A stretch of 64,000 nt of DNA from a virus. Every line of letters starts with the position of its first letter. The first letter of the stretch is position 1. A model generated the notes under the pieces. That model was not told the origin of the DNA and did no database searches. It saw only the letters and a program-made list of their open reading frames with translations. The translations under genes were made by a program, and so were the position numbers. Where the stretch lies: positions 32,001-96,000 of IMG/VR virus record IMGVR_UViG_3300036859_000816, one strand, 5' to 3'. Below, piece after piece: positions 2 to 35,801 of the stretch.

Positions 2-229
2 GTTTTTAAGGCGCTGCTCACGGACTACAAACACGTCGTCTCAGCATCACTCGAGCATTTGGACGGTGTTGCAAAAAAGGAAAGCGAAAAAAAGATTGCT
101 CTGATCGACAAAGCGCTCGTGCGCATTAACGAGCTGACGCTCAGCGAAGATGCGCCTCCGGATGAGCATGAAGATGAAGAGGACGACAATGAGGACGACG
201 AGGAAGAGGACGTCGACAAATCGAACTGA
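2..229 (+). CDS. 3' end of hypothetical protein with acidic tail (truncated by window)
   Basis: Frame 2 is open from base 2 (VFKALLTDYK...DEHEDEEDDNEDDEEEDVDKSN*); its TGA overlaps the ATG at 229 (TGATG). Confidence 0.7.
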   Translation, partial: VFKALLTDYKHVVSASLEHLDGVAKKESEKKIALIDKALVRINELTLSEDAPPDEHEDEEDDNEDDEEEDVDKSN

Positions 230-2715
230 TGACTACGCCCGCCGACATTGCACGACCCGCTGATGAATCGAATGATGACGGGCAGAAGTTAAGCGGGCCC
301 TTTTCATCGACGGACCTGGCGGCAAAGAAGCGTCGAAAAACAGACCCGGAAGAGAACGCCGCTTTTCTTAGCGAACATCTCGACGCAACCCTGCCTCGCA
401 AAGATGAACAAACCGCTCGGGAAGCGGCTCCCGCCATCGTGAGTACGGGAACGGCGGAAGCGACGCCGCCAGCCGAGATCAATCGTCAGCTGCGCGACCA
501 ACCGACCGTCGATGCCGTCGTCGATCTAGATGAAGAAAAGCTCGACAAGTTCTGTAAAAATTTTCAGGATCTGTTTAAGAAACAAATCGACGGCGAGAAC
601 TTCTACATCGATGTCATTCGTCGCAAGCCGGCGAGCTGGCAAGGTATTACGACTAAGGGTTCGCAGCATCGCATCGAACGACCGATGACCATCGAGGAGT
701 TTGCACAGCTCTACGGTGGCGAGGAGTACGTGCTGCAGGTCTATGGCAAGTCGAAGAGGGGACCCGTACTCAAAGACGTGAACGGTAAGCTCATCGGCAT
801 TGCGCGCACGACTCCGGTTATCGTCAACATACCGGGAAGAGACCCAAATCCGTATACTGCCGTCGGCTACGCCGAACATGGAAGCGATGACATGACCAAT
901 CCAAGCATTCCACTTGTAACGGCTCCCATGGCTCGCGTACGCGACTCAGAGCTCAAACACGAAGAGGTCATGGACGAACGGCGCGATCAGCGTGAGCAGC
1001 GCGCCGACGAGCGTCGCCGCCGAGAACTCGACAAGGTACGCGAAGAAGAGCGCGGCAAGATGGACGTCAGTCTGCAAATCCTCATGAAGCAGATGGACGA
1101 AAAGAGTGCGCAGATCGCGACCCTTACAAAGAAGCTCGAAGACCGCGGTGAGGATCGCAAAGCGGACATGCAGGGCATCGCGGCGGTGATTTCGGCGACG
1201 AGACCTGCGCACGATCCGCAGGAATCCAAGACACTCCAAGAGCTACAGAACAAACTGAGCGAGCAGCATAAAGACGAGATCAAGACGCTCATGGCGTCGC
1301 ATGCCACCGAGCTCAAAGCGGTGCAGGATCTACAAGTCAAGCTCAGTGAACAGCACACTGCCGAGATTACTCGGTTGCGCGAAGGGTACGCGGCCGAGTT
1401 GACGCGGCTACGCGAGGAACAGGGCAAAGAGCTCAGGCGCGTCGATGAATTGCGCGCGGAACAACGCAAGGACTCGGACAAGGCAATCAAAGAATCCGAA
1501 GAACGGATGGCGCAGCGAATCAAGGATGTCGAAGAGCGCGCGCGTCAGGACGTCGCCGCTGCGCGAGCGGACGTCGCCGACGCCAAGTCCGATGGCGATC
1601 GACGAGTCAACGACATAAAGGATCGCTTCGAGGATCGTATCAAGGATCTGGACCGCAATCACAAGCGCGAGATCGATGGCAGTCGAGAGCGGTGGGAGTT
1701 GCAGCTCTCCAACGAAAAGACTGCGCTCGAGACGCGCCTCGCTATCAAGGACCAAGAAATCCTACGTCTACAGGAAGAGCTCGAAACCGCTCGCGAGGAA
1801 GCGAAGAAGCCACTGACCGACCGCATCAATGAAGTCGCCGCCGCCGCCGAGGCGCTCGGGTACGGCAAGAACGAACCGGAGCAAAAAGACTGGAAACAGA
1901 TGGCGCTCGAGGTCGGCGGCAACCTCGTGTCGAATCTACCGGAGCTGCTACGCTCCGCTGGCGATACGATTACAAAAATGCGCCAGCAGCCGACGCCGCA
2001 ACAGATGGTTGCTTACACACAAGCTCAACAAGCGCAGATGCAGACGGCAGCCGGCGCACGTGCCGTGCAGTTGGCCGGCACGGCCTTGCCGCCACCGTTG
2101 CGAGGACCCGCAGGCGCATTGGCGGGGCCGCGTGGCGGCTTCGCTACCGAAGACGGACCGGAATTCGAAGGCGCGCGCGGGATGCGGTCGCCGATCATGC
2201 CGGCAGATGCGAGCGTGCCGACCATGGGCCGCGTACCAGCACCCCAGCCGCCTACGGCACCGGCGCCGCGGGCGGCGATGCCCTACGCAATGCAACAGCA
2301 CGTCCAGCCCATGCAGCCGGCGCGCATGCCAGTTCAACCGATGCAACCGGTCCAACCGGCACCGGTCGCCGCGGCCGTCCCTCAACCGGCAGAGCCGCCC
2401 GCTCCGACCGAAGCGCCAGCCAGCGAACCCGGACAACCCGGCACACTGCGATTCACCAATGAACAAGTGCTCGAATTTCGTCCACTCTTCGAAGCCGCTC
2501 TCAAGCAGGGCGCATCGCCTACGGAAGTCGCTGACTATCTCGTGCGCACGTACAATCGTGAACGCGTCGCCAAGGTTCTGCCTTTCATCGAACCGGGTTA
2601 TTTGCTGAACGTACTGCAGGAGAACGGCTTCGATCGTAGCCCGCTCTGTCGCCGCGACGGCCAGAAGTTTCTGCGGGAAACGTACGCGGTACTCCAACAG
2701 CGCTGCGCAGGATAG
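229..2715 (+). CDS. Large coiled-coil protein with Pro/Gln-rich linker and small C-terminal helical domain
   Basis: 828-aa ORF; E/K/R/Q-rich heptad-like region ~aa 240-530; Pro/Ala/Gln-rich region; coupled start. Confidence 0.85.
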   Translation: MTTPADIARPADESNDDGQKLSGPFSSTDLAAKKRRKTDPEENAAFLSEHLDATLPRKDEQTAREAAPAIVSTGTAEATPPAEINRQLRDQPTVDAVVDLDEEKLDKFCKNFQDLFKKQIDGENFYIDVIRRKPASWQGITTKGSQHRIERPMTIEEFAQLYGGEEYVLQVYGKSKRGPVLKDVNGKLIGIARTTPVIVNIPGRDPNPYTAVGYAEHGSDDMTNPSIPLVTAPMARVRDSELKHEEVMDERRDQREQRADERRRRELDKVREEERGKMDVSLQILMKQMDEKSAQIATLTKKLEDRGEDRKADMQGIAAVISATRPAHDPQESKTLQELQNKLSEQHKDEIKTLMASHATELKAVQDLQVKLSEQHTAEITRLREGYAAELTRLREEQGKELRRVDELRAEQRKDSDKAIKESEERMAQRIKDVEERARQDVAAARADVADAKSDGDRRVNDIKDRFEDRIKDLDRNHKREIDGSRERWELQLSNEKTALETRLAIKDQEILRLQEELETAREEAKKPLTDRINEVAAAAEALGYGKNEPEQKDWKQMALEVGGNLVSNLPELLRSAGDTITKMRQQPTPQQMVAYTQAQQAQMQTAAGARAVQLAGTALPPPLRGPAGALAGPRGGFATEDGPEFEGARGMRSPIMPADASVPTMGRVPAPQPPTAPAPRAAMPYAMQQHVQPMQPARMPVQPMQPVQPAPVAAAVPQPAEPPAPTEAPASEPGQPGTLRFTNEQVLEFRPLFEAALKQGASPTEVADYLVRTYNRERVAKVLPFIEPGYLLNVLQENGFDRSPLCRRDGQKFLRETYAVLQQRCAG

Positions 2716-2724
2716 GTTGTTGTC

Positions 2725-5415: not shown

Positions 5416-5961
5416 GTGGTCGCCATTGCCGCACAACCCATCGCCGATGCGCCGCCATTCGTGCGGTCACGCTTCGGAGGACCGGTTCATACGATTCAGG
5501 TCATGCAGCAGATGTGTGTGGGCCCACGTGGCGAGCGGTCGATGTTGCTGCATTCGCTCCGCAACTACATCGTGCGAGAGCTCCAGCCCAAGGATTACCT
5601 GAGCGAGATTTTAGCCGTCCGGAACTTCGCCAGTGAGCACATTCGCTACTCCAACGATCCGCTGACCGAAGAGCAAGTGCAGGATCCCGAACGCATTACC
5701 GAACAGATCATCAAGTTCGGCAAAGCAGCAGGGGACTGCGACGACCTGGCTCTATGGATTGCAGCAATCTCTCGTCAGCTCGGTCGTGAGGCGCAATTCG
5801 TGACCGTCGGCTTCGAAGCGCCCGGACGCTACAGTCACGTCTTTACGCGCGTAAAGGAACCCAAGAGCGGACAATGGATCGTCTGCGATCCAGTAGCGGG
5901 TTCGAATGAAGCGGCGATGCTGCGCCGTGTGAAGACCTTTCATGTTTGGGATATTCGCTAA
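5416..5961 (+). CDS. Transglutaminase-like (papain-fold) cysteine enzyme, candidate virion maturation protease
   Basis: Cys-His-Asp triad pattern GDCDD...YSHVF...WIVCDP. Confidence 0.85.
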   Translation: MVAIAAQPIADAPPFVRSRFGGPVHTIQVMQQMCVGPRGERSMLLHSLRNYIVRELQPKDYLSEILAVRNFASEHIRYSNDPLTEEQVQDPERITEQIIKFGKAAGDCDDLALWIAAISRQLGREAQFVTVGFEAPGRYSHVFTRVKEPKSGQWIVCDPVAGSNEAAMLRRVKTFHVWDIR

Positions 5962-6845
5962 TGGCATACATTTCGACACTCATTCCGGTTACATTCGTGC
6001 GATCGATCCAAGGCTTGGGCGTAACGCAGAGCGAATACAATGCGTGCCTGGCGGCGCAAGCTGCGTACCAAAGGGATCTTTCTGCTTGGAACACTGAGCA
6101 AGCGGCATACACCGCTGCCGTTTTGCAACGGCAGATAACCATTGCGGCGCAGACGGCGACATACAACGCAGCCTACGCGGCGTATGTGAGCGCGCACGAC
6201 CGATGGGTGAAAGCGAAGGCCACGTGGAACAGTTACTTGTCACAGCTCGCGAGTATTGCGGCCGGCTACGCAATGACGACCGCTCAGGTGACGGCAAAGT
6301 ACGGACAGATACTAAGCGGAACGCCGACATGCGTGCCGAAAGACTGGCACACCAAGCTCGCCAACGAATGTTACAACTACAGCAACCCGGTCAAGGGACT
6401 CGGCGCCTTTGATTGGCGCCAATACGAAACGCGCGAGCTCGCCTGCTTTGGTGCCGCACTGCCGACTTGTGTCGATCCGCCGCTGGCTCCGCCGCAACCG
6501 GGACCAGAGCCGATGCCGCCAGTCAAAGCGACGCCGCCTCCAGATGTGCTGCCGTTGCGACCCAAACCGACTGCGCCCTCCTCTTGCATTGCGCCTACGC
6601 CTGTAGCAGTGCCGGCGCCAGTAGTAGCAGTGCCGGCGCCAGTAGCAGTACCAGTCGTAATACCCAAGGCTCAGCCTGATGAAGGAATTAGGGTTGTCGC
6701 GCCAGCCGCGGAAGAAGCCGCTATGGCGCCAGCGGTTCCTATCGAAGCAAAAGCCGGCGGCGGTCTGCTCGTCGCGGGACTGCTGGTGCTCGCTGTAGGC
6801 GGTGGAATCTACCTCATGAGCCGCCGTCGTCCCGCAACAACGTGA
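5961..6845 (+). CDS. Putative virion protein, C-terminal TM anchor, Pro-rich stalk
   Basis: TAATG coupling at 5959-5963; IQGLGV and VKGLGA motifs; TM LLVAGLLVLAVGGGIYLM followed by RRR. Confidence 0.8.
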   Translation: MAYISTLIPVTFVRSIQGLGVTQSEYNACLAAQAAYQRDLSAWNTEQAAYTAAVLQRQITIAAQTATYNAAYAAYVSAHDRWVKAKATWNSYLSQLASIAAGYAMTTAQVTAKYGQILSGTPTCVPKDWHTKLANECYNYSNPVKGLGAFDWRQYETRELACFGAALPTCVDPPLAPPQPGPEPMPPVKATPPPDVLPLRPKPTAPSSCIAPTPVAVPAPVVAVPAPVAVPVVIPKAQPDEGIRVVAPAAEEAAMAPAVPIEAKAGGGLLVAGLLVLAVGGGIYLMSRRRPATT

Positions 6846-6849
6846 TTTT

Positions 6850-6879
6850 TTGCGCCTCAGAGCATCGGCGCCGTATGAT
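6850..6879 (+). promoter_or_regulatory. Promoter TTGCGC-N18-TATGAT
   Basis: Intergenic, preceded by a T-run, 14 nt upstream of ATG 6894. Confidence 0.6.
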
Positions 6880-6893
6880 CGAGGCGAAAGAAC

Positions 6894-7568
6894 ATGGGTC
6901 CGACCTACCCGAACTACCCGAGTCAGCCGTACCGCGGAGGACAGCTCCCGACGATGGAACAAGTCGGGCCGCCCGACACTCGCTACAGTTCCGGTACAGC
7001 ACCCTTCTATGAAAGCGGGATCGTTGGCATGTACGGACGGAACCTTGCGGGCACTGATGAGGGCGTTCAGGACGAAAAAGCGGAACCGGCCTGGGCATCC
7101 AATGAGCTCGAAATGTACGCGCGCCAGGACGACGTCCAGGGCAACGGCATTTTCGATCCGCCCGGCTCGCACCCTAACATTCATCCGGACGCGGGCGTGT
7201 TCTCCGTGAACTATTCGCTGCCGGGCTATCACGCGCGCGAGCGTCCGTTCTCGGAAACAGAGGTGCTGGACGTTACAACGGGTCGGCCGATTCGAGCCGT
7301 ACCGAGCGGAGCAGTGGCGATGGACAGCGCAGCGCAGATAGCATTTATCGAACGCGGATTGTATGCGCCGCCCTCGCCCATCGTCCGCGCGTCGTATCGC
7401 CAGCCCATGTACAGCGCATCGATCGCTAACGTCATGCAGAATGCCGTGCCCGTAGCCATGGGAGCGACGGAAACGGCGCAGAATCTTATTCCTGTGCTCA
7501 TCACCGCAGCATTGGCCGGTGGCGCGCTCGGCGCACTGATCGGTTGGATGACGCGAGGTAAGGCGTGA
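6894..7568 (+). CDS. Putative virion protein with C-terminal TM anchor
   Basis: 224 aa; GNGIFD motif; C-terminal LIPVLITAALAGGALGALIGWMTRGK. Confidence 0.8.
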   Translation: MGPTYPNYPSQPYRGGQLPTMEQVGPPDTRYSSGTAPFYESGIVGMYGRNLAGTDEGVQDEKAEPAWASNELEMYARQDDVQGNGIFDPPGSHPNIHPDAGVFSVNYSLPGYHARERPFSETEVLDVTTGRPIRAVPSGAVAMDSAAQIAFIERGLYAPPSPIVRASYRQPMYSASIANVMQNAVPVAMGATETAQNLIPVLITAALAGGALGALIGWMTRGKA

Positions 7569-8011
7569 AGCTATCGGCTTACGAACTTGGCCCCGTAGTG
7601 GAGTGGCCGATGAGTGGAGTCCATCCCGAGCTCGTACAGGCTTCGCTCTTGCCCCTGCGTTCGACGCCGCCCGCGCGGCCGATGGACGGATGGAATGGTA
7701 TGTCCGCTTACGAGCTTTGGCCGGCGTACGGTTTCGGTGCGCGCCGTCTGCGCCGCGCTTGGCCGCTCTATGGTGTTGGCGCAGAAGAGCCACCGCCGGG
7801 TGCTCCAGCTGAGCCCGCGCGTGAGGCCGCTCCGATCGGCAAAGGATTGTTCATCGGTGCGGCGTACGGCATTGCTATCGGCATGGTCGCAAGTGAGTTT
7901 GTGATGCGTAAGCCCGATGCCACGCAACAGCTCAAGCAAAACCATCAACTCGTGATGTTTGGCGCGCTGTTCGGTGCGGCCGTCGGCGCCTTTGGAGCGG
8001 TGCAAGCGTGA
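7565..8011 (+). CDS. Putative virion membrane protein (two TM)
   Basis: GTGA coupling; internal SAYEL repeat; YGFGA/YGVGA motifs; two hydrophobic helices. Confidence 0.75.
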   Translation: MKLSAYELGPVVEWPMSGVHPELVQASLLPLRSTPPARPMDGWNGMSAYELWPAYGFGARRLRRAWPLYGVGAEEPPPGAPAEPAREAAPIGKGLFIGAAYGIAIGMVASEFVMRKPDATQQLKQNHQLVMFGALFGAAVGAFGAVQA

Positions 8012-8394
8012 AAGACCCGAACCTGCAACGCATCTTCGGTCTTGGCGATAATCCCGATGGATTGGGCCAGAACTACGCGACGAGGGAAACCAGTGGACCG
8101 GGTTCCGGACTCGAGCACGTGCCGCTATATTCGCGTGGAGCGCCGACGCTGATCAATCACGGCGCTGCCAAGGTACTTGGTCAAGACGATACCACCGAAG
8201 GATTGGTTGCGGGACTGACCGGCTTAGTCGTGCGCGCAGGAGGCGGAGCCATCGTTGGAATGGCTCTCGCTCCGAGTAAGGACAAGTGGACGGTTTATGG
8301 AATCACTGGCGCGGTTCTAGGCGCGGTGTTCGGCACGCTCGGTATGATGGGTCAAGCGACATACGTTTTGTTGACGCGAGAAGGTCGACAATGA
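8008..8394 (+). CDS. Putative virion membrane protein
   Basis: GTGA coupling; IFGLGD and DGLGQ; Gly-rich hydrophobic helices. Confidence 0.75.
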   Translation: MKDPNLQRIFGLGDNPDGLGQNYATRETSGPGSGLEHVPLYSRGAPTLINHGAAKVLGQDDTTEGLVAGLTGLVVRAGGGAIVGMALAPSKDKWTVYGITGAVLGAVFGTLGMMGQATYVLLTREGRQ

Positions 8395-9416
8395 CGATGA
8401 ACCTACGCCGCAATTTGATGGGACCGTATCAGCGCGGTGTGCCCAGTCAATACGTCGTCCACTATCATCCGTGGCCAACGCGCTTCCATGGTCCGCTGTA
8501 TCAGCGTCCCGTTTTCAATTTCCCATGGATGAGCTCGCCGCAGAACGTCTTCAAGCCTGGTGATTTCTATCCCGGAGAACTCACCGAGGAGCAAATGTCA
8601 GTGCAAGGACTCGGAGCAGACAGTCGTTATCAAACTGGCCAAGAGGCGATGGCTTACAACGTAGGTCGCGGCATCTTCAAGCCGGGCGGTTACGGCGGCG
8701 GCATCTTTGATGGTAATCTATCCGGCGACAAAGTCGCTCGACCGCTCGGCACGCCGCAGCGTCGTCGACGGCGTCGTCGCGGCATGAGTGGCTTGGGTGC
8801 TGCAACGGGACCAGTGCCGTCGACATGCTGGGACAGCCAAGCGTTCAAAGATTGCCAAGCGCGCGTCTTTGCAAAAGCGCAAGGTGACTGTCCCAAGACG
8901 GGTTACCCGAATGCGGCATATCCGAGCTACGACGATTGCGTAAAGGATCTGGCTGCAACGTATGTAGGTCCATCAGCAGAATCGCTCACCTGCGTTTCGC
9001 AGTATTGCGGTGGTGCCGCAGCAAAAACTGCAACGGGCGCATATCCGTGGGGCACATACAGCGCGGAGACGTTACGAATTCAAAAGGAAACGAACACTGC
9101 GCTTGCGCTCAAGGGTTTCTGTCCCATTGTAGCTGACGGTAAACTTGGACCCGCCACATGCGGCGCACGCAAAGCGCTGAGCGACCTTGGTCTGAGTTTT
9201 CCTGTTCCTTCAACCTGCCAAAAATTCACGGCACCGACTAAACCGCCATGTCCAGGTGGAGCGCCGGGACCAGTATTCGAGCCGGGGAAAGGCATCACTA
9301 CGGCATCGATGCTGCCCGGTGCCGGTCCTGACTGGACGATGATCGCGGCATTCGGTGTCGGTGCCGTCGCAGTGCTCGGCATCGGATACTTTCTACTGAC
9401 TCGAAAGGAGCAATAA
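8391..9416 (+). CDS. Putative virion protein with peptidoglycan-binding-like domain and C-terminal TM
   Basis: ATGA coupling at 8391; IQKETN...VADGKLGPAT (PG_binding_1-like); R-run before MSGLGA; TM plus RK. Confidence 0.8.
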   Translation: MTMNLRRNLMGPYQRGVPSQYVVHYHPWPTRFHGPLYQRPVFNFPWMSSPQNVFKPGDFYPGELTEEQMSVQGLGADSRYQTGQEAMAYNVGRGIFKPGGYGGGIFDGNLSGDKVARPLGTPQRRRRRRRGMSGLGAATGPVPSTCWDSQAFKDCQARVFAKAQGDCPKTGYPNAAYPSYDDCVKDLAATYVGPSAESLTCVSQYCGGAAAKTATGAYPWGTYSAETLRIQKETNTALALKGFCPIVADGKLGPATCGARKALSDLGLSFPVPSTCQKFTAPTKPPCPGGAPGPVFEPGKGITTASMLPGAGPDWTMIAAFGVGAVAVLGIGYFLLTRKEQ

Positions 9417-9417
9417 G

Positions 9418-11147: not shown

Positions 11148-11150
11148 GCG

Positions 11151-12086: not shown

Positions 12087-12088
12087 CC

Positions 12089-24192: not shown

Positions 24193-24193
24193 T

Positions 24194-24436: not shown

Positions 24437-24448
24437 ACTGGAGCGGCA

Positions 24449-26819: not shown

Positions 26820-27662
26820 TTGGACAATTGCGGCGCGTTGGCGGCAAAATCTGTGGTTGTGACTGATCGACTAGCTGCTACCGCTCTCCGCATACTCGCT
26901 CCGCGAGCCGTCGTGTTTGGATTCGGCAATCCGGACAGCTTGCAGAATGTCATCACGACCGACCTGCCGAACGGCGCCGAGTGCTTCGTTATCGAGGACC
27001 GGACGCTGTATCGGCTGAACAAAACGCTGACGGTTACACCGCCCGGCGGAATTCAACCGGTCGGTGGTCCGGGACGCTGGGTTCCCGATTTCGGTCCAAC
27101 CGGCCCAACGGGACCCACCGGAACGAGCGGAAGTACGGGACCGACCGGAGTCGGCACGACGGGTGCGACCGGTACAAGCGGCGCAGCAACCTTCGGACGC
27201 GCCTCGATGCAATTCGATCCGAGTGTGTTCGGAACCGATGGTGTGTTCGACGTTGCCGCACAAAATAATTGGATAGGAGCCGATAGCACGCAGGTTGCCT
27301 ACGTTGTTCAAACGACACTGAGTGCCGATTGGTCACTGAATGGAACTACTGGCGTGCTGACGTACTCCGGCGTGGATGCATTCTACGCGTTCGTCGGATC
27401 CGTCAATCTGAACTCTCAGGATGGCGTTGCGCGTAATATCGAGGTCGCGTTTACCAAAAATGGTGCATTCATCGGTTCGCCAACCGCTATCTTGAATGCT
27501 ACCGGCGGCTTCACCAATGCGCTCAACTTCATGCCGTATAATCCCACTGCGATGTTCGCCGTATCCGCGACCGATACGATTCAAATGATCGCGCGTAACG
27601 TCGATGCGAACGCAAACCTCGAATACAACCGCCTGAGCGCCATTGGCTGGCGCGTCGGTTAA
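26820..27662 (+). CDS. Collagen-like spike/fibre protein
   Basis: GPT/GxT triplet repeats followed by a beta-rich head; true start probably GTG 26853 or 26859. Confidence 0.75.
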   Translation: MDNCGALAAKSVVVTDRLAATALRILAPRAVVFGFGNPDSLQNVITTDLPNGAECFVIEDRTLYRLNKTLTVTPPGGIQPVGGPGRWVPDFGPTGPTGPTGTSGSTGPTGVGTTGATGTSGAATFGRASMQFDPSVFGTDGVFDVAAQNNWIGADSTQVAYVVQTTLSADWSLNGTTGVLTYSGVDAFYAFVGSVNLNSQDGVARNIEVAFTKNGAFIGSPTAILNATGGFTNALNFMPYNPTAMFAVSATDTIQMIARNVDANANLEYNRLSAIGWRVG

Positions 27663-28689: not shown

Positions 28690-29310
28690 ATGGCCGACGA
28701 CGAGAAGTCCAAGCAACTCGAAGCGCCGATGGCCGTTTGGGTGAAGGGCGGCACGACGTCAATGCAGCATGATGTCGAGCAGCAACGTCAGGCGGCTGAG
28801 GCCGAAGCTCGACGTGATGTCGAGGCGGAGCGTCACCGTATTGCGCTCGCAAATCCGATGGAAGCGCGCATGCACACGATGTCGCTCAGTAATCGGCAGC
28901 GCGACGCCATGGTTGTGCTCGGCTTCAAACACGCCAAGGACAACAAAATCGACAATTGGATGACGTGCGAGCTCTACCGCATTGGCGACGCTGAGCACGA
29001 GCGGCTCGTCCTACAAATCTGCTGCCCGTACTGCGTGAGCAAACACGGTCGTTCACTCGGCCAGTCGCAGTACCACATTCATCAGGACCACCGTGACTTC
29101 AGTCTGGATCAGCGTACGCGAGAGCAGCGTAAGGAGCACTCACTTGGTGTTCCCGTTGCTGGCGACATCTGGATCAATCCGGAGAACGTCGAGGAAGTCA
29201 TCAAAGTGGCGGGCACAATTACAACGCATGGTTGGATCCGCTGCGACGGTCTCGGCTGCACGTGGTCGTTTCGCATTGATGACAGCGTCATCATTACGAG
29301 GTCGACGTGA
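28690..29310 (+). CDS. Hypothetical protein (possible Zn-binding)
   Basis: 206 aa; CPYC and CDGLGC. Confidence 0.7.
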   Translation: MADDEKSKQLEAPMAVWVKGGTTSMQHDVEQQRQAAEAEARRDVEAERHRIALANPMEARMHTMSLSNRQRDAMVVLGFKHAKDNKIDNWMTCELYRIGDAEHERLVLQICCPYCVSKHGRSLGQSQYHIHQDHRDFSLDQRTREQRKEHSLGVPVAGDIWINPENVEEVIKVAGTITTHGWIRCDGLGCTWSFRIDDSVIITRST

Positions 29311-29588
29311 GCCGCAAGTGGAAGCCTGAAGTCATCATCGGCGGCGGTGAGCCTAAGCCGCAAGATCCCAATCCGATGACGAGCGACTTCGGCCATGCCG
29401 TCGATCAGTTCGTTGCCGGTTGGTACAAGCGCCACCCACAGCTCGACCAGGATGCAGCGCTGATTGTCCTAATGCAATACGTGGCCGGTTTAGCCGTAAC
29501 CCGCGGCTGTCCGGAAATCGATTACGTACGCTGCTCAACGGACCTCTATCAGATGGAGGCGCAGGCACGGAACAAAGACGGCGCATGA
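29307..29588 (+). CDS. Hypothetical protein
   Basis: GTGA coupling, 93 aa. Confidence 0.65.
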   Translation: MSRKWKPEVIIGGGEPKPQDPNPMTSDFGHAVDQFVAGWYKRHPQLDQDAALIVLMQYVAGLAVTRGCPEIDYVRCSTDLYQMEAQARNKDGA

Positions 29589-29959
29589 GCGAAGCGTTCA
29601 TCGAATTGTGCGAACTGATTCGCCAGGCTGGTCTCGAGCTGCGACTGTACGGGCGTCCCGTCACCAAACAGCAGGTGCTCGAGTACGCACAACAGCATTC
29701 AATGATGAGGATAGCGACGATGAGCAACTCGAATACGGACACAAATTGGAAATTTTCGGATGAGCTCGACGGATTGAAATTGGGCACGGCCGAAGAAGAG
29801 CGGCACCGGGCGAAGCTCTGGATGGACACGGCTGCGCAGCATGGGCGTAACGAAGAGTACTGGCGCAATCGCTGTCGCAAAGCCGAAGAAGTCATCAACG
29901 AATTCGTCAAACAGGCCGGCAAAGCGGGCTATACGATCAGCGCTAAAAGCGATGACTAG
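29585..29959 (+). CDS. Hypothetical protein
   Basis: ATGA coupling at 29585; overlaps the start of the next gene. Confidence 0.55.
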   Translation: MSEAFIELCELIRQAGLELRLYGRPVTKQQVLEYAQQHSMMRIATMSNSNTDTNWKFSDELDGLKLGTAEEERHRAKLWMDTAAQHGRNEEYWRNRCRKAEEVINEFVKQAGKAGYTISAKSDD

Positions 29960-31292
29960 CGAGCGTATGGATGAAACGGCCGCGCGAGCACCCGTCGAAG
30001 GGCAGCTCGAACGCGAACGACCGTACTTTGCACCGGGTCAAACAGCGGAGCACCTATTCAGTGTGCTCTATCAAGGCGAATACGAGACGCTCGGGGACGG
30101 TACCGCTATTGCCGTCCGCCGGCATGCGACGGCCTTGGCAGCAAGTGGTATTCCCGTACAGCTGCGGAGCTTTTCGAACATCGTCGTCAATCGCTACGGT
30201 GTGCGCGAGCCGGCGCACCTCGGCATTCCGGCACCCGTCGAAGCTGAAGTCGGTGCGCTGCGCAAGACATCGGTTCAAGCGCTCATTCCTGTCATCAAGC
30301 ATGCGGTCATCGCCAGCGCGGAACACGCGCGCAACATCCTAATTCCTCATGGCGCCATCGGTACCGATACGATGGCAACCGTCGAGCTGCGGCGCTCGAT
30401 TTGCCAAAATACGATCTTGTACACGGTCTGGGAGCGCAGCCGCATCGATGAAACGTTGGCGCGTGAACTTGACCGCGCGGCGCAGCTCTGGGTGCCGTGT
30501 GTACAGAACGCGCAAATGTTGGAGTCCAGCGGCATCGCTAAACACAAGATTCACGTCGTGCCGCACCCGTATCGGCCTGATGATGATCTCACCAAACTGC
30601 TCGATCGCAAACCGACGGACTGGCGTCTGTTCTATTCGATCGGCCGCTGGGAACCGCGCAAGGCTTACGCGGAGCTAATTACAGCGTTTCTGCGTGCGTT
30701 TACGCCGAGCGACAAGGTCATGTTGACGATCAAGTACTCGGGCAATGGCAATTGGCAAGGCTACCCGACGCCAGCACAGGCTTTATACATGGCTCTCGAT
30801 TCGACCGTCAGGAAACATTGGACGGAAGAGCAAGCACGCCAACGTATCCGGTTCATCGACAAGCACCTCAGTGCTTCAGGAATCATTGAACTGCATTTCC
30901 GCAATAACATTTACGTCTCGTGTTCGCATGGCGAAGCGTGGAACTTCGGCGCATTTGACGCGATACAAGCCGGCAACTCTCTCGTGTACGTGCCATGGGG
31001 CGGCGTAGTGGATTACGCTTCACCGAACGACACCAGAGTGCCGTTACGCGGCATGCAGCCAGTACATGCCAGTTATGGATGGGCCGAAAGCGAATGGGCA
31101 GGATTTGAAATCGACGACTTGGCGCTCGCTCTGCGCTCCACTCCAGTGCGCAGCGCGTACGGGCGGCCGCTGCATTTTAGTCACTTCAGCGCGCCGGTAG
31201 TTGGCCGACAAATGCGCGATCTTGTGCTCCAGCTCGCCGACGAACGAGCGCCAGCTGCAGCTGCGTACTATCGAGGAAAGGTCGATGGCTAA
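29952..31292 (+). CDS. GT4-like glycosyltransferase
   Basis: YTVWE, LWVPC, VVPHP, SIGRWEPRK, SHGEAWNFGAFDA. Confidence 0.85.
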   Translation: MTSERMDETAARAPVEGQLERERPYFAPGQTAEHLFSVLYQGEYETLGDGTAIAVRRHATALAASGIPVQLRSFSNIVVNRYGVREPAHLGIPAPVEAEVGALRKTSVQALIPVIKHAVIASAEHARNILIPHGAIGTDTMATVELRRSICQNTILYTVWERSRIDETLARELDRAAQLWVPCVQNAQMLESSGIAKHKIHVVPHPYRPDDDLTKLLDRKPTDWRLFYSIGRWEPRKAYAELITAFLRAFTPSDKVMLTIKYSGNGNWQGYPTPAQALYMALDSTVRKHWTEEQARQRIRFIDKHLSASGIIELHFRNNIYVSCSHGEAWNFGAFDAIQAGNSLVYVPWGGVVDYASPNDTRVPLRGMQPVHASYGWAESEWAGFEIDDLALALRSTPVRSAYGRPLHFSHFSAPVVGRQMRDLVLQLADERAPAAAAYYRGKVDG

Positions 31293-32133
31293 TCTACTTT
31301 ACGAAACCTGCGCACACTGTGCGGAACAGCGTGCACATTTCGATATCAAAGCGTTGCACTGTTCGTGGTGTCGCGGCACGGGATTTATTCTGAAGTCGTA
31401 TGTGTGCAATGTATGTGGCGACGCCGTACGTCTGGACATGTACGGCGAGCTGGGTCTGCCTGATTTGAAGATTACAGGCAGCTATGGTTCGATGTACTTA
31501 AACGATTACCATACCTATTTCTTCGCACTGTGCGAGCGCTGCCTGCGCAATCTGTTCGAGCACATGGAAGTTCCGCCGGAAGTTCGCGACGTACACGACG
31601 GAGACGTCTTGTACAAAGGAGATCGAGAGACGTACGTTCGGATGTTGTGGCTGCGCACTGGCGCAGAGCAGCGCAAGTTGAAGCTTACGCAAGGCTTATG
31701 CACATACACCGAATTCTGCCGCAATGAAGCCCACTGGCGCGTATTTTACTCGGCGTCAGTGAGCGACGAAGCGCTGTGCGACTCACACAAGTCGAGCGTG
31801 GACCATTGCGCGAATGCGACAGTTGTGCCCGCAGAGCCGTTGCAACATGTACCGGTCGACGTGAAAGATCAAACGGAAGAGCAACGGTGGCTCGTTGCAT
31901 CGGAGTGGCTACGAGCGCAGCCCAAGCAAGCATGGCAGTACATGCCTGAGTGTCTCAAGCCACTAACTAACGCTCCAGATGCGACATCGACGTGGTGGTT
32001 TCCGAGCGAAAAGACTTGGCGTTCGGAGTTGACGGACGCGAAGGAGCTCAACATCGCTGACGGTTTGTTAGTGTGGGACCTGAAAATAAAGGCCGCGTGG
32101 GCGGAATTATCGAAAGGGAACGTGAATGGCTAA
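31285..32133 (+). CDS. Multi-Zn-finger hypothetical protein
   Basis: CxxC motifs including CSWCRGTG; RBS GAGG. Confidence 0.7.
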   Translation: MANLLYETCAHCAEQRAHFDIKALHCSWCRGTGFILKSYVCNVCGDAVRLDMYGELGLPDLKITGSYGSMYLNDYHTYFFALCERCLRNLFEHMEVPPEVRDVHDGDVLYKGDRETYVRMLWLRTGAEQRKLKLTQGLCTYTEFCRNEAHWRVFYSASVSDEALCDSHKSSVDHCANATVVPAEPLQHVPVDVKDQTEEQRWLVASEWLRAQPKQAWQYMPECLKPLTNAPDATSTWWFPSEKTWRSELTDAKELNIADGLLVWDLKIKAAWAELSKGNVNG

Positions 32134-32419
32134 AAAGATACTAGTGACGTGCGATTTTTGCGGAGAATTGGCCAGATGTGATGCTTCCGAAGATCCAACA
32201 GTACAGCTAAATTTAGTCGTCAGCGCTAAGAGCAAACAGCTCGCTATTCATAGGCGTCCTCCGATGCCTGTTGTCGGTGACGCAACTGGCATCTTCCCGT
32301 CTGACGTTTGCGTGACGTGTCTAAATAAAGCGTTACGTGCGCTCGGGTTGGAGCTGTGTGACGGCAACGAACGCGGATTTCCGCCTAGTCTATATCTGCG
32401 ACGCAGCGATAGCCGATGA
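32126..32419 (+). CDS. Small Zn-finger protein
   Basis: CDFC...CVTC. Confidence 0.6.
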   Translation: MAKKILVTCDFCGELARCDASEDPTVQLNLVVSAKSKQLAIHRRPPMPVVGDATGIFPSDVCVTCLNKALRALGLELCDGNERGFPPSLYLRRSDSR

Positions 32420-33486
32420 ATGTTCGTCTCTACGGACGCATCATGGGTCATGGCAGCCATGCGCAGGTGACGCGCGGCTTTCGTGAAACTCTCGAGGTAG
32501 CCGGCTTGCTGAGCGGAGTCGTCGCGCTCGATATACTGGGTTTGGACGAACAGTTGATGGGTCAACTTCGATCTAGCGGTGATCCCGCAGTAGAGCACGG
32601 CGTCTTGACAGGTGCGCTCGAATTCATGGATCAGTTGACGCGAGCGAAACATGCGCGTCGCTGGGTCATGGTCGCTCCGAACAGCAACTGCTTACCTCGT
32701 CCGATTGAACAGATGCTCAACGACATTGCGACCGATGTCTTGGTGCCCTCTGATTGGGCGGCGGACATGCTCAAGGAGTTAACGGATAAACCGATCCACG
32801 TCGTGCCGCACGGTGTGCATGAAGGTTTCTCACGCAGCGCCGCTCAGCGTGAACGGCTAGAGAACGATTACAACGCACAACAGTTTCGCGTTCTGCACTT
32901 TTCGACGAGCGAACGCCAGCGCAAGGGCACGTTTGAGTTACTGTGCGCGTGGCGCGCGCTGATGAAGTGCGGTCGGTTACCTAAGCTCGCTGAGCTATTT
33001 CTTGTGCTGGATTACTCCGCACAATTGCGACTTGCGGAACGACTTGTGGACGAAGACATGGACGTGCCCGGCCTGAAAGTCGTAACTCGTCTGGACGCGG
33101 CACCCCAAGCGATGGCGGACGTGTTGCGGCAAGCGCACGTAGTCTGCCAACCGTCACGGGCGGAAGCCTTTGGGATCATCCCCCTTGAAGCACTCGCATG
33201 CGGCACGCCGATCGTCGCAACGGCCTGCACCGGTCACAAGCAGTACTTGTCGCATTTAGGCGTACCGGGCTTCGTTGTCGTCCCGCATGCCGAGCTCGGA
33301 CCTATCGATGATGGGCCGGCTGCCGTTGCGCCAACGGTCGATCCTGAGGCCATTGAAGCGGCTCTGGCGGTCGCGTACGACAACTGGCGCGATCTCAGTG
33401 GGCTCGCATTCGACGCCGCACCGAGGGTCGCGGTAGACTGGTCATGGCGGCGTCAACTTGCGCCGTGGCTGGAGCAACTGAGATGA
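32416..33486 (+). CDS. GT4 glycosyltransferase
   Basis: VVPHGV, RKG, PSRAEAFGIIPLEALACGTP (E-x7-E motif). Confidence 0.9.
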   Translation: MNVRLYGRIMGHGSHAQVTRGFRETLEVAGLLSGVVALDILGLDEQLMGQLRSSGDPAVEHGVLTGALEFMDQLTRAKHARRWVMVAPNSNCLPRPIEQMLNDIATDVLVPSDWAADMLKELTDKPIHVVPHGVHEGFSRSAAQRERLENDYNAQQFRVLHFSTSERQRKGTFELLCAWRALMKCGRLPKLAELFLVLDYSAQLRLAERLVDEDMDVPGLKVVTRLDAAPQAMADVLRQAHVVCQPSRAEAFGIIPLEALACGTPIVATACTGHKQYLSHLGVPGFVVVPHAELGPIDDGPAAVAPTVDPEAIEAALAVAYDNWRDLSGLAFDAAPRVAVDWSWRRQLAPWLEQLR

Positions 33487-33980
33487 CTAGTCTAGGTCAA
33501 CCCGCACGCAGCTTCTGGCGCTTGCCACCCGGTACACCCGAATGGATGCGCCCACCGGATTGGATGGCGTTGGGGTCGCCCGGCAAGATCGTGGGCATGA
33601 TGCAGAACCCGCGCACGGGAAAGTGGACGATGGTTGAAGCGATGGCCGGGCTCGGCAATCCCGGAAAAATCGTCGGCTTCAATCCCGACACGGGTGAGGT
33701 CTACTGGGCGACTGCCGGCTTCGGTGCGACGACCGCTCCGGCCTATGCTCAGGAAGCGGCAAAACGTGCGGCTGAAGCCGCGGCGGCCGCAGCGAAAGCT
33801 CAGGCGGCAACCCAGGCCCTGAAACAACAGCAAGCCGCACTCGCGCCGCAGTTGGCACCGACGACGACGGCGAAAGCGCCCGCCGATGCGACGATACCCA
33901 TCCTAGCGTTTGGTGCCGTCGCCATTGTCGGCGGCATCCTACTGTTTCGACGCCGACGTCCAGAAAGATCCACCACATGA
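33483..33980 (+). CDS. Putative virion protein with C-terminal TM
   Basis: ATGA coupling; LGSPGKIVG/LGNPGKIVG repeat; TM plus RRRR. Confidence 0.75.
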   Translation: MTSLGQPARSFWRLPPGTPEWMRPPDWMALGSPGKIVGMMQNPRTGKWTMVEAMAGLGNPGKIVGFNPDTGEVYWATAGFGATTAPAYAQEAAKRAAEAAAAAAKAQAATQALKQQQAALAPQLAPTTTAKAPADATIPILAFGAVAIVGGILLFRRRRPERSTT

Positions 33981-34333
33981 AGGTCCACGACATGAACGAA
34001 GCACTTGCACGGCTCAAGCCGTACTCCGGTAAATTGGTCACCGTTCAACTGAAGACGCCGTTCTGCATGCTCTCGTATGCCGGCAGCCACATGCTCAACG
34101 GAAAAGAAGTGCACGGCCTCATGCCCGCGCAAATCAAGGGTCCAAACGGCGAAGCCGAGCCCGTCGGATTTTCTCCGATCATTCCTTCAGCGATTCTCGA
34201 CGTCAACGAATTCGATGTCCTGTTGCGCTTGCGCGATCCGGCGACGGGCGCAGAGCTGCACATTAGCTTGCCAGCAGACGAAGTCCTTTATGTCACGATC
34301 GTCGGCAAGGCTCCGTCGAAGCTCGTCTTGTAA
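33977..34333 (+). CDS. Hypothetical protein
   Basis: ATGA coupling, 118 aa. Confidence 0.7.
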   Translation: MKVHDMNEALARLKPYSGKLVTVQLKTPFCMLSYAGSHMLNGKEVHGLMPAQIKGPNGEAEPVGFSPIIPSAILDVNEFDVLLRLRDPATGAELHISLPADEVLYVTIVGKAPSKLVL

Positions 34334-35017
34334 ATGAGCCGCGCTGACGAAACACGCTTTCGGCGCTGGCTCATCGATCGAATCAAGGAAACGTGCTTTC
34401 AGAAGTATTCGGGCGAATCCATTGAAGAGCTCGCGCAGCGACTCGGCGTGCAAGCGGATGTGTTGCGTACGGCCCAGGCCGAGCGTGCCGAAGAGCTCAC
34501 GGCGATAGGACGGCCGCCGATTAAGGTTGGCAGCGCACGAGCGCGCGGTAGTGCGCCGCAGCTGACGCTGCATTGTCCCAAGAACATATTCCAGGAAATG
34601 CATGTGCGTGCGACACGCTTAGGTGTCAGTCATGGCGAGCTCGTCCGAGCAATCGCCAACACGTTGCTCAGCGGTCCAGACAATCCGATCTGGCTTTACC
34701 ACTGTTGGATGTTCGAAGGCGTGCGACAGGTGATCGGATATAAGCCAGCCCAGAAATGGTACTTGGACGTTGCGCTGAGCAAAGGCGCGCACGTCGCACT
34801 CGATCAACGCGCCACGAGACTCGGCACGAACAAAACCGCGCTACTGCGCGGAGCCATCACCGACTATCTCGAGGGTCGAATGACGGGCGTGTGTTTTGTA
34901 CCGGTGTCGATGATGTGGCAGGACCCAAAGCGCTACTGGACAGGCGAGCTGATTCGTAAAGGAGAATACCATGGACATTCAGGAACTATTGAGCCGCGAG
35001 TCGCGAACCAGCATTGA
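34334..35017 (+). CDS. Putative DNA-binding protein (tandem RHH-like modules)
   Basis: Repeat RATRLGVSHGELVR / RATRLGTNKTALLR. Confidence 0.6.
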   Translation: MSRADETRFRRWLIDRIKETCFQKYSGESIEELAQRLGVQADVLRTAQAERAEELTAIGRPPIKVGSARARGSAPQLTLHCPKNIFQEMHVRATRLGVSHGELVRAIANTLLSGPDNPIWLYHCWMFEGVRQVIGYKPAQKWYLDVALSKGAHVALDQRATRLGTNKTALLRGAITDYLEGRMTGVCFVPVSMMWQDPKRYWTGELIRKGEYHGHSGTIEPRVANQH

Positions 35018-35801
35018 GACGTGGTGCCGGCGCAATGCGCAGGCGGTGTACGTTGGCAATGACACAGTGCTGTGTCGCGTGCTCGGTAAGTACCCGATGT
35101 ATGTGCAAGCGAGCGATGTGTCCGTGGGTGCGCGTCTGATGCTCGATGGTTACTGGGAAATGTGGATCACGATGGCCATCGCGCGCTATTTGAAACCTGG
35201 CATGACCTGTCTCGATGTCGGTGCGCACGTCGGTTATTATACAGTGCTCATGGCCGACATCGTTGGCGCACGAGGCCGCGTCATCGGGCTCGAACCGTAC
35301 GTGCCGAGCTACCGCCACTTATGTAACAACATCGTCGTAAATGGCGGTCCAACTGTCGAAGTTCAAAGTTACGCAGCCTCTGACGTAACCGGAATGCGAA
35401 ACATGTACGTCGATCGAACGTATACGGGTAACAATACTCTCGAGAACGACTATTGTTCAGATGGGGAAGCTGAGCGACTAGGATTAGTTGAGCCCATCAT
35501 ATGCTCAAAAATCGACGACAAGGTGGACGTTGCCGTCGACTTCATCAAAATCGATGCCGAACGACACGAACGTCACGTCTGGCGTGGCATGCAGCAGTTA
35601 CTTGCGCGGAATACCAACGTACAGGTCGCGATGGAATACACGTTCGCAGCCGATCCAGAGCATGAGCTACTGAAAGAAATCCGTGAAGCCGGCTACGAGA
35701 TCCACGACATTCAAGGCGACGGAACGCTGCGCAAGATGACGGCTGAGCAAGTGGTGAGCGATCCGAGCGTGCAGTGGCGAATGCTCTGGCTCAAGCGCTA
35801 G
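34971..35801 (+). CDS. FkbM-family SAM-dependent methyltransferase
   Basis: LDVGAHVGYY, GLEP, DFIKIDAE; RBS AGGAG. Confidence 0.9.
   Translation: MDIQELLSRESRTSIETWCRRNAQAVYVGNDTVLCRVLGKYPMYVQASDVSVGARLMLDGYWEMWITMAIARYLKPGMTCLDVGAHVGYYTVLMADIVGARGRVIGLEPYVPSYRHLCNNIVVNGGPTVEVQSYAASDVTGMRNMYVDRTYTGNNTLENDYCSDGEAERLGLVEPIICSKIDDKVDVAVDFIKIDAERHERHVWRGMQQLLARNTNVQVAMEYTFAADPEHELLKEIREAGYEIHDIQGDGTLRKMTAEQVVSDPSVQWRMLWLKR

Follow-up and report, generated by a model that had tools for sequence, protein, structure and literature searches.

A probable morphogenesis module of a large tailless, jelly-roll bacterial virus from soil

We propose that the genes between positions 229 and 35801 of the 64,000-nucleotide window analysed here (positions 32001-96000 of G000:C1, the single 131,132-bp record IMGVR_UViG_3300036859_000816) probably form the morphogenesis module of a tailless bacterial virus with an icosahedral and probably membrane-lined particle. 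One product of this block, MCP1, is a predicted jelly-roll protein, and the hallmark genes of tailed phages were missing from profile searches; together these results support the tailless jelly-roll virus envisaged in a preliminary description of this DNA. MCP1 is, however, predicted to be a single jelly roll and not a double one. The source of the record is most likely an uncultured soil bacterial virus with a genome of about 127-131 kb, and its relatives are best explained as a widespread, uncultured lineage of soil and freshwater with genomes of about 125-180 kb, on which a literature search found no paper.

IMG/VR classes the record as a linear virus with a CheckV completeness of 85%, and its first and last 4.4 kb repeat each other with 80% identity, so that little sequence may be missing. 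It was compared with seven related IMG/VR loci (contigs of 38-179 kb), and among the eight records in all, two have a rating of 100% complete and two carry direct terminal repeats. The terminal-repeat relatives are 125 and 179 kb long, which together with the 131 kb of the record bears out the earlier impression of an unusually large genome of tailless type.

The block is co-directional and neighbouring genes often overlap by 4 bp. Among 42 candidate genes selected by hand from the list of ORFs, 38 lie on the plus strand and four in a minus-strand island (2999-5323), for which no homologue was found in the complete relative G001. From 5416 to 28117, 11 of the 25 consecutive plus-strand junctions are overlaps (six of exactly 4 bases) and five more are gaps of 1-3 bases, so the genes are coupled (Table 1). 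The order p108, p205, core protein, MCP1, p322, p269, p265, DnaJ is largely kept across the relatives, with single members missing in some.

Table 1. Features of the block, with positions in the window
Position	Strand	Feature	Description
229..2715	+	828-aa protein	N-terminal globular part; ~300 residues 47% charged (coiled-coil-like); Pro/Gln/Ala-rich stretch; C-terminal domain
2999-3733	-	Metallophosphoesterase	Pfam Metallophos, E 4.8e-15
3730-4794	-	Glyco_trans_1_3 glycosyltransferase	Pfam E 9.7e-93
4791-5048, 5027-5323	-	Two small hydrophobic proteins	Hydrophobic segments
5416..5961	+	Transglutaminase-core (papain-like fold) enzyme, 181 aa	Pfam Transglut_core, E 8.8e-8, 32.8 bits (cut-off 23)
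5946..12415	+	Nine coupled small-protein genes	Seven with C-terminal membrane anchor, most with Gly-Leu-Gly motifs
12376..16351	+	205-, 344-, 562- and 216-aa proteins	Soluble and conserved; acidic; with glycine-zipper segment; Ala-rich (respectively)
16464..18365	+	Arg-rich (protamine-like) protein, 633 aa	Two hydrophobic helices; acidic Gly-rich tail with four GLG motifs
18493..19248	+	MCP1, 251 aa	Predicted single jelly roll; candidate major shell protein
19305..20690	+	HNH homing endonuclease, 461 aa	PHROG 3377, E 2.4e-55
20839..21807	+	p322	N-terminal helical hairpin; conserved beta-rich core of ~250 residues
21807..22616	+	p269	Conserved beta-rich protein
22754..25948	+	Four further GLG-motif proteins	Three with C-terminal anchor; one of 499 aa with repeated Cys modules
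25945..26544	+	DnaJ-domain protein	Pfam DnaJ, E 1.8e-10; kept in 7 relatives
26820..27662	+	Fibre-like protein, 280 aa	N-terminal domain; 7 Gly-X-Y triplets; beta-rich C-terminal part
28690..35801	+	Trailing part of block	Conserved Cys-rich 206-aa protein, RHH protein, FkbM methyltransferase and others
29841-31292, 32416-33486	+	Two glycosyltransferase-like proteins	Trailing part
33444-33980	+	C-terminally anchored protein	Trailing part

MCP1 was modelled by AF2 as one 8-strand sandwich (pLDDT 81.9, pTM 0.79), and fold comparison of this predicted model places its jelly roll closest to those of the SPV1 and P23-77 shell proteins, although in Foldseek no match reached E <= 0.001 in PDB or BFVD, the best (1.5e-2 and 4.5e-3 respectively) being borderline. 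The protein has 658 homologues (the best 120 of the 658 at 70% identity or above) and 93 clusters at 50% identity; in the shortest homologues the core is about 190 residues long. Three copies were predicted to self-associate with a score of 0.81, compared with 0.00 for the best of three controls; 85% or more of the contacts were common to the runs, with a partner pLDDT of at least 81. The mark for self-association was reached by 20/30 proteins solved as one-chain pairs and 1/23 solved as single chains, figures that hold only roughly since the calibration was made with two copies and other alignments.

Beta-rich capsid candidates had already been noted in the block; MCP1 is predicted as a jelly roll, but the AF2 model of p322 was poor (pLDDT 53.8) and fold searches with it gave no informative match. 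p322 has 719 homologues, is 45-64% identical in eight relatives, where it always adjoins MCP1, and is a candidate for a second shell protein, a penton or a sub-capsomer component. For p269, a candidate capsid component, no match to a family, PDB or the atlas was found; it is 33-42% identical in eight relatives and its position is unchanged. Profile comparison did not relate MCP1, p322 and p269 to one another (probabilities below 1%). An alternative is that MCP1 is a penton, spike base, cement or other accessory jelly roll of a virus whose shell has an unrecognised fold, for example that of p322, or whose particle is not icosahedral (pleomorphic, or an enveloped nucleoprotein). We consider this unlikely, as no other gene of the module is as well conserved as that of MCP1 (76-80% identity in closer relatives vs 59-64% for p322), the best fold matches of MCP1 are hexamer-forming shell proteins and not pentons, and its predicted self-contact uses two different faces.

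Several other products of the block are candidate virion or assembly proteins. The 828-aa protein, without a Pfam or PHROG match and 27% identical to its G001 homologue over 890 columns, may be a scaffold or size-determining protein. The 205-, 344-, 562- and 216-aa proteins are sub-capsomer or core candidates: the first, 39-52% identical in 7 relatives, and the second had no Pfam or PHROG family match, the 216-aa protein had none in Pfam, and the 562-aa protein matched tape-measure PHROG 167 over residues 189-457 only (E 2.2e-6). The DnaJ-domain protein could recruit host Hsp70 during assembly. Non-structural genes are also present, encoding, besides the DnaJ-domain protein, an HNH endonuclease, glycosyltransferases, a metallophosphoesterase, an RHH protein and an FkbM methyltransferase. 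The homing endonuclease is a mobile passenger outside the virion module; it sits between the two most conserved structural genes, was matched in 0/9 related loci, and is missing from a contig of another soil run in which 19229 is joined to 20786. The trailing genes (PHROG 2170 glycosyltransferase, E 2.7e-9; Pfam GT4-conflict, Glycos_transf_1, RHH_1 and Methyltransf_21), six of which have G001 homologues, probably serve virion glycosylation and regulation and not the shell.

By a crude Kyte-Doolittle scan (window of 19 residues, mean >= 1.6), 20/42 block proteins have a hydrophobic segment, and in 13/42 such a segment lay within 35 residues of the C-terminus; the enrichment is real, and to call the block dominated by membrane-anchored proteins, as had been done, somewhat overstates it. 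PHROG matches were found for none of five small proteins tested from the nine-gene cluster, in which the product of 10599-11147 matched the peptidoglycan-binding family PG_binding_1 (28 bits, cut-off 23) and that of 9418-10602 did so weakly. The four further GLG-motif proteins had no Pfam or PHROG match. GLG occurs 34 times in the block compared with 6.6 expected, and in 16 of these the next residue is Ala; it is likewise enriched in G001 (24 vs 5.5 expected; control region 7 vs 7.3) and in the loci L006, L009 and L010. The transglutaminase-core enzyme, a candidate virion maturation protease, is 57% identical to its G001 homologue, with conservation of the Cys, His and Asp that we take to be its triad.

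The DNA-condensing protein suspected earlier corresponds to the 633-aa product, which has 113 Arg in residues 96-330 (48%) and 16 runs of at least four Arg, then hydrophobic helices at 393-437 and the acidic Gly-rich tail. It had no Pfam or PHROG match, and was matched in 9/9 related loci searched through its C-terminal half, with the exception of L007, where only the N-terminal Arg-rich part matched. This protein is a candidate for a membrane-tethered core component that condenses DNA. The supposed collagen spike is a candidate vertex fibre or receptor-binding protein: its Gly-X-Y triplets are consecutive and it weakly matched tail-fibre PHROG families (E 6.2e-6 to 3.2e-4), but there was no Pfam Collagen match at E <= 0.01. 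Residues 6-121 are common to five paralogues in the record at 30-60% identity.

Hallmark genes were sought by six-frame searches of the record and up to seven relatives with a limited Pfam set and a loose first-look filter, which could miss very divergent versions. TerL_ATPase, Terminase_6C and Terminase_3 were each found in 0/8 records, as were Phage_capsid (the one HK97 capsid family searched) and Phage_portal (the one portal family searched), and Terminase_6N and FtsK_SpoIIIE in 0/1 and 0/5. Nothing scored above the cut-off for Pox_A32 in eight records; there were just two 12.5-bit P-loop matches, of which that in G005 falls in a DnaB-like ORF and that in G004 has an identical score, model span and frame length. 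The only NTPases with a family match were DnaB-like and SNF2-like helicases. Pfam or PHROG scans of 30 proteins from the flanks and 10 large G001 ORFs returned replication, methylase, glycosyltransferase, lysis and integrase families and no head, tail or packaging family, and sheath, tube and baseplate families were likewise missing from every scan of block, flanks and G001 ORFs. The earlier statement that the block has no terminase, portal, HK97 capsid or tail gene holds at the level of Pfam and PHROG, and no tailed-phage hallmark came to light in window, flanks or relatives. The packaging ATPase that had been expected outside the window did not appear, there being no FtsK or A32 match in the record, the two 100%-complete relatives or the two with terminal repeats.

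Another possibility, which we regard as very improbable, is a tailed phage (Caudoviricetes) with hallmark genes too divergent for Pfam and PHROGs or located in unsampled sequence, and with MCP1 as a decoration protein. The 85% completeness of the record would allow this, and the tail-fibre and weak tape-measure PHROG matches, a replication module of tailed-phage type and atlas neighbours labelled Uroviricota (an automatic label) are in keeping with it; however, large terminases are usually the phage genes most readily detected, and the four TerL families, HK97 and portal were not found in any of the eight records (six for Terminase_6N), complete and terminally repeated ones included, the repeated ends of the record suggest that little may be missing, and sheath, tube and baseplate families are lacking from the scans. 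Least probable is a large plasmid-like or vesicle-transferred element in which anchored proteins and a jelly-roll oligomer build some structure of the cell surface or of vesicles (pilus-like fibre, S-layer, plasmid vesicles), as might fit the ParB and tyrosine recombinase, the Ena-type pilins and nucleoplasmin-like pentamers also among the structural neighbours of MCP1, the many membrane and glycosylation genes and an element known from genes alone, but no FtsK/TraD-family ATPase was detected, as conjugative DNA transfer would need, the endolysin-like gene, tail-fibre-like domains, Arg-rich protein and homing endonuclease adjoining the most conserved gene are reminiscent of phages, two relatives have direct terminal repeats and IMG/VR classes 8/8 records as viral.

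For the tailless virus that we favour, the endolysin-like protein encoded in the flanks, the peptidoglycan-binding domain and the DnaB, DnaG zinc finger, beta clamp, RecT and ParB genes of the record point to a bacterial host. The tyrosine recombinase and ParB could equally serve multimer resolution and partition, rather than a temperate lifestyle. A glycosyltransferase relative at 45% identity, labelled at NCBI as a Deltaproteobacteria MAG, is the sole, weak hint toward Myxococcota; bins that contain the shell gene carry the labels Gemmatimonadales, Pirellulales and Pseudomonadota. In the proposed scheme, MCP1 would form the capsomers, with p322 and/or p269 as pentons or sub-capsomer proteins. 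The proteins with a C-terminal anchor, a dozen or more, suggest an internal membrane and would populate this host-derived layer, those with peptidoglycan-binding domains acting at entry. The 48%-Arg protein may condense the DNA and anchor it in the membrane by way of its two helices, and the shell may assemble around the pre-condensed core with no motor filling, as proposed for SPV1. The over-represented Gly-Leu-Gly(-Ala) motifs may be sites where the transglutaminase-fold enzyme trims virion proteins, or alternatively docking signals. Fibres with the shared N-terminal anchor would sit at the vertices and glycosyltransferases would decorate the particle.

As far as the account in PMC8812541 goes, SPV1 (Portogloboviridae) has no packaging ATPase, and the P23-77/SH1/HHIV-2 group combines two jelly-roll shell proteins with an FtsK/HerA-type packaging ATPase. 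Since no such ATPase was found in the record and its complete relatives, SPV1 would be the closest structural kin and, on the predicted model of MCP1, the nearest family is Portogloboviridae and not the PRD1-like viruses. SPV1 (PDB 6oj0) has a hexamer-forming, VP4-type single jelly-roll shell protein, as predicted for MCP1, and the lack of an ATPase is shared (FtsK_SpoIIIE 0/6, Pox_A32 0/8 above cut-off). Its second single jelly roll is the penton VP10, a role for which p322 offers only the poor model, and its inner lipid layer and nucleoprotein core have putative counterparts here read from genes (the 13/42 anchored proteins and the Arg-rich protein). No sequence similarity was detectable between the MCP1 lineage and SPV1, which has a 20-kb circular genome, a Saccharolobus host (Sulfolobales, archaea) and no replication proteins, and is non-lytic. 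In contrast, genomes of the present lineage measure 125-180 kb and carry bacterial-type genes for DnaB, DnaG, the clamp, RecT, peptidoglycan binding and an endolysin, together with an Arg-rich candidate core protein apparently in place of a VP1-type one, the GLG motif and the transglutaminase-fold enzyme.

PRD1, PM2 and the ATPase-bearing P23-77/SH1 group were rejected as closest kin because no packaging ATPase was found. P23-77, SH1 and HHIV-2 (Helvetiavirae; vertical single jelly-roll capsids; genomes of 17-31 kb) have the ATPase and two jelly-roll genes, whereas here A32 was found in 0/8 records, FtsK in 0/6 and one jelly roll is predicted. PRD1 and PM2 (Tectiviridae, Corticoviridae) offer a likeness in being tailless, with an internal membrane bearing small anchored proteins and with muralytic or cell-wall-binding membrane proteins, and P5 of PRD1 is a vertex spike with collagen-like motifs. 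These Bamfordvirae differ in their A32-like ATPase, 10-15 kb genomes and double jelly-roll shell protein, compared with the single roll modelled for MCP1 (p322 or p269 might still be double), and the PM2 P2 families P2_N and P2_C were found in 0/5 records. The HK97-fold capsid, portal and large terminase of Caudoviricetes were not found at the Pfam level. Adenovirus and African swine fever virus have Arg-rich core proteins and a cysteine protease whose cleavage sites in virion precursors are short motifs containing Gly, to which the 48%-Arg protein, papain-like-fold enzyme and GLG excess offer a functional analogy only, without shown homology; the enzyme here is of the transglutaminase-core family, unlike adenain, and cleavage by it is hypothetical. 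Characterised tailless membrane viruses have genomes of roughly 10-31 kb, and if the tailless reading is true, this virus would exceed every described tailless phage several-fold in size.

From its sequence, the lineage appears to have no packaging ATPase, a state that PMC8812541 also gives for Sulfolobus polyhedral virus 1 (SPV1) and FLiP. TerL_ATPase, Terminase_6C, Terminase_3, the HK97 family Phage_capsid and Phage_portal were each found in none of eight records (0/8), including the relatives G001 (179,401 bp, terminal repeats, 100% complete), G005 (138,061 bp, 100%) and G003 (125,036 bp, terminal repeats), and Terminase_6N and FtsK_SpoIIIE were also absent (0/1 and 0/5 records for each). 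Pox_A32 gave two 12.5-bit P-loop matches, one of them inside a DnaB-like ORF and the other with the same score and span. No head, tail or packaging family was returned by family scans of 30 proteins from the flanks of the record under study (G000) and 10 large ORFs of G001; these scans gave replication, methylase, GHKL ATPase, MazG, glycosyltransferase, collagen, lectin, endolysin-like, TnpB-like, integrase and FG-GAP families. Walker-A scans produced 8 loose matches in G000 and 20 in G001, only the DnaB-like and SNF2-like ORFs being tied to NTPase families, and a G001 ORF with GAGKS looked of low complexity and had no Pfam match. The preliminary description had seen no terminase, portal, HK97 capsid or tail gene, and at family level this is borne out in the window, the flanks and the relatives. 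It had also presumed that a packaging ATPase would lie outside the window, but none was detected there, FtsK_SpoIIIE being absent and Pox_A32 yielding only those weak matches.

The candidate major shell protein, MCP1, belongs to no Pfam or PHROG family, has no match by tblastn in GenBank phages (50,697 records) and, as a profile against PDB sequences, gave chance matches only (E 0.13 or worse). Even so, it is very widespread and conserved: 658 homologues were found among 90%-identity clusters, of which the best 120 are at least 70% identical, and clustering at 50% identity gives 93 clusters; seven loci lie on IMG/VR contigs of 38-179 kb and two in MAGs labelled Pirellulales and Pseudomonadota. 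The shortest full-length homologues have about 190 residues and are without segment 85-130, which leaves a conserved core as large as one jelly roll. An AlphaFold2 model built on a 38-row alignment (pLDDT 81.9, pTM 0.79) has eight or nine long strands. For this model Foldseek gave no match with E <= 0.001; at the top of the PDB rows stood the SPV1 capsid protein 6oj0_A (E 1.5e-2, probability 0.99), followed almost exclusively by jelly-roll capsid proteins. Three copies of MCP1 were predicted to associate (score 0.81 versus 0.00 for the best of three controls), and the mark used was reached by 20 of 30 solved one-chain pairs and 1 of 23 solved single chains, a calibration that differs in copy number and alignment. 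Contacts agreed in at least 85% between runs, with partner pLDDT of at least 81, and they fall on two separate faces of MCP1, which is what subunits lying side by side in a ring or lattice would show. By computation, MCP1 is a conserved protein, predicted to self-associate and to adopt a single jelly roll of the SPV1 and P23-77 type, although the fold score is borderline. A second, split MCP1 gene lies just upstream of the intact copy in the relative G007 (pieces of 50% and 71% identity), and may reflect duplication or interruption of the capsid gene.

In every relative MCP1 is followed by p322 and then p269. There are 719 homologues of p322, the model of which is poor (pLDDT 53.8); a structure aligner matched only an N-terminal helical hairpin, and the best Foldseek rows (E 0.1, TM <= 0.19), several of them picornavirus or tymovirus jelly rolls, were given no weight with such a model. 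Profiles against PDB sequences gave coiled-coil noise only for p322 and nothing for p269, and atlas searches with the two found no named kin. A lead from the atlas to the PM2 P2 families (score 0.76) was rejected (0/5 records), as was the idea that MCP1, p322 and p269 are detectable paralogues (hhalign probabilities 0.7%, 0.2% and 0.3%).

Within the block at 229-35801, 42 candidate genes were hand-picked from the ORF list, 38 of them on the plus strand, and many junctions are 4-base overlaps or 1-3-base gaps. A replication module continues upstream of the window on the same strand (YqaJ exonuclease, beta clamp, RecT, DnaG-type zinc finger, MT-A70 methylase, DnaB-like helicase, C5 methylase and ParB); position 229 is a functional boundary of the block and not an operon boundary. 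Promoter and terminator searches of 16000-23000 returned 3 and 7 sites, about the numbers that chance would give (2.0 and 6.9 expected), and an AGGAG about 12 bases upstream of the MCP1 start is not decisive. An HNH endonuclease separates MCP1 from p322 in G000 alone, none of nine related loci matching it, and in another soil run a contig connects 19229 with 20786 through 165 other letters and lacks the endonuclease; run X3 had no cover over 19011-21014, which was given no weight. The endonuclease gene is a mobile one that has inserted next to MCP1, the most conserved gene. Other non-structural genes inside the block encode a metallophosphoesterase, glycosyltransferases, a DnaJ-domain protein, an RHH protein and an FkbM methyltransferase.

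Positions of the features discussed (window coordinates unless a record is named)
Feature	Position	Detail
Transglutaminase-core enzyme	5416-5961	
Arg-rich protein, 633 aa	16464-18365	candidate DNA-condensing core protein
MCP1, 251 aa	18493-19248 (+)	candidate major shell protein
HNH endonuclease, 461 aa	19305-20690	PHROG 3377, E 2.4e-55
p322	20839-21807 (+)	
p269	21807-22616 (+)	
J-domain sequence in the block	25945-26544	
Putative spike	26820-27662	
J-domain-like sequences	42526-43419 and 49531-50913 (minus strand)	HPD motif, by eye
Right-half accessory genes (tyrosine recombinase and membrane sulfatase-family protein among them)	47378-48502, 57039-58228, 58218-60071	recombinase, Pfam E 1.7e-32; sulfatase-family protein, E 3.9e-23
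Protein of 707 aa	G000 100876-102999 (window 68876-70999)	C-terminus matches transposase (TnpB-like) PHROGs, E 4e-11
Loci among the sharers of the spike N-terminal domain	G000 103855-106531, 115287-116997	
Separate collagen protein, 611 aa, and a ConA-like lectin	G000 122019-124566	Pfam Collagen E 1.5e-59
Split MCP1 gene	L011 8650-9840 (G007)	
Direct repeat at record ends	G000 1-4365 and 126786-131132	80% nucleotide identity

Two J-domain-like sequences were noted besides the one in the block, and Pfam assigned neither to a DnaJ family at E <= 0.001; several J-domain proteins in a single virus genome, if real, would be unusual. The right half of the window carries the recombinase and sulfatase-family genes and two proteins judged by eye to resemble LuxR-type HTH regulators; these are accessory or lysogeny-type genes and lie outside the block. 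Past the window's end lies the gene for the large protein with a TnpB-like C-terminus.

A crude hydropathy scan placed a hydrophobic segment in 20 of the 42 block proteins, C-terminal in 13. The Arg-rich protein is 48% Arg across residues 96-330, with 16 runs of at least four Arg, and this part is followed by two hydrophobic helices and an acidic tail. The protein described earlier as a collagen spike has only seven Gly-X-Y triplets and no Pfam Collagen match at E <= 0.01, but matches tail-fibre PHROGs weakly. Its N-terminal domain (about 80-100 residues) is common to five other G000 proteins at 30-60% identity, and the six continue with differing collagen-like and beta-rich parts, so that they look like a fibre family, an exchangeable repertoire on one attachment domain. 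The transglutaminase-core enzyme and its G001 homologue share 57% identity, and the candidate Cys, His and Asp are retained. Gly-Leu-Gly (GLG) occurs 34 times in the 42 block proteins, across 5027-33980, against 6.6 expected, and Ala is next in 16; it is found mostly in anchored proteins and the Arg-rich protein, and never in MCP1 or p322. The enrichment recurs in G001 (24 versus 5.5 expected; control region 7 versus 7.3) and at related loci L009 (14 versus 3.3), L010 (19 versus 6.5) and L006 (13 versus 6.0), and is weaker in L007, L011 and L022. In the p269 alignment the position varies (GLG, GPG, GAG, GGG), and therefore not every instance is conserved. One reading of the motif is a cleavage site; another is a docking signal.

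G000, of which the window is bases 32001-96000, is a single linear virus record of 131,132 bp in IMG/VR (CheckV completeness 85%). Its first 4.36 kb and last 4.35 kb form a direct repeat carrying paralogous genes, including a GHKL-type ATPase with 94% protein identity between copies; G000 may thus represent a practically complete circular genome of about 127 kb assembled round into a strain variant, or have a long diverged terminal repeat. The G+C is even (0.55-0.64), the window has no tRNA genes, and near-identical DNA is present in soil metagenome runs of four studies, one of them a possible source. A PG_binding_1 domain in a virion-block protein and an endolysin-like gene in the flank point, at the sequence level, to a host with a peptidoglycan wall. 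MAG labels of the relatives disagree on the host, and of the 120 matches listed from a search with a glycosyltransferase, one bore an organism name.

We propose that MCP1 would tile an icosahedral shell that covers a membrane of host origin, in which the anchored proteins sit, and that the Arg-rich protein would condense the DNA and link it to the membrane, so that the shell could close round a pre-formed core without a motor. By our scaling from PRD1 and SPV1, such particles would measure roughly 140-170 nm. Membrane proteins might be matured by the transglutaminase-fold enzyme or docked through GLG, fibres with the common N-terminal domain would bind receptors, PG-binding proteins could aid wall crossing, and glycosyltransferases may decorate the particle. 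The computed basis is the predicted fold and self-association of MCP1 together with the failure to detect motor or tailed-phage genes; the remaining steps we infer. We read the block, with some confidence, as a morphogenesis module of a tailless, probably membrane-lined icosahedral jelly-roll virus; the membrane is slightly favoured, and for motorless assembly the chances seem about even. A bolder proposal, which we regard as tentative and rather doubtful, is that this lineage comprises the first giant (125-180 kb), bacterial relatives of portoglobovirus-type viruses, a deep motorless icosahedral lineage of family rank or higher, in which the genome is condensed beforehand by a protamine-like protein tethered to the membrane, an internal membrane and single jelly-roll shell form round it, and a transglutaminase-fold protease matures at least a dozen virion proteins at Gly-Leu-Gly. 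If true, core maturation of the adenovirus and asfarvirus kind would have its counterpart in bacteria.

The usual assumption is that a bacterial virus with a large genome is a tailed phage, whose preformed head is filled by a terminase motor; the tailless prokaryotic viruses with a membrane that have been described are, to our knowledge, all small, with genomes of about 10-31 kb. At 125-180 kb, a widespread soil lineage with a jelly-roll shell and no detectable motor would exceed that limit four- to six-fold, and would leave to be explained how such an amount of DNA comes to be enclosed. In virome surveys such contigs are at present labelled tailed phages by default, as the Uroviricota label on atlas neighbours illustrates. 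At the level of listings and abstracts, literature searches turned up no account of tailless bacterial viruses above 100 kb or of bacterial SPV1-like shell proteins. PRD1 and PM2 have a double jelly roll, whereas that predicted here is single; the P23-77/SH1 group, with vertical single jelly rolls, has a packaging ATPase, whereas this lineage appears to be without one. Portogloboviridae are the closest, sharing the shell fold, at a borderline score, and the absence of the ATPase. SPV1, of that family, has a 20-kb genome, an archaeal host and mini-CRISPR arrays (ICTV profile, PMC8459092); the present lineage departs from the family in genome size and host and is therefore not a member. The portoglobovirus-like state proposed as ancestral would gain a bacterial branch, and, if the bolder proposal is true, the single jelly-roll, ATPase-less condition would extend beyond archaea and beyond small genomes.
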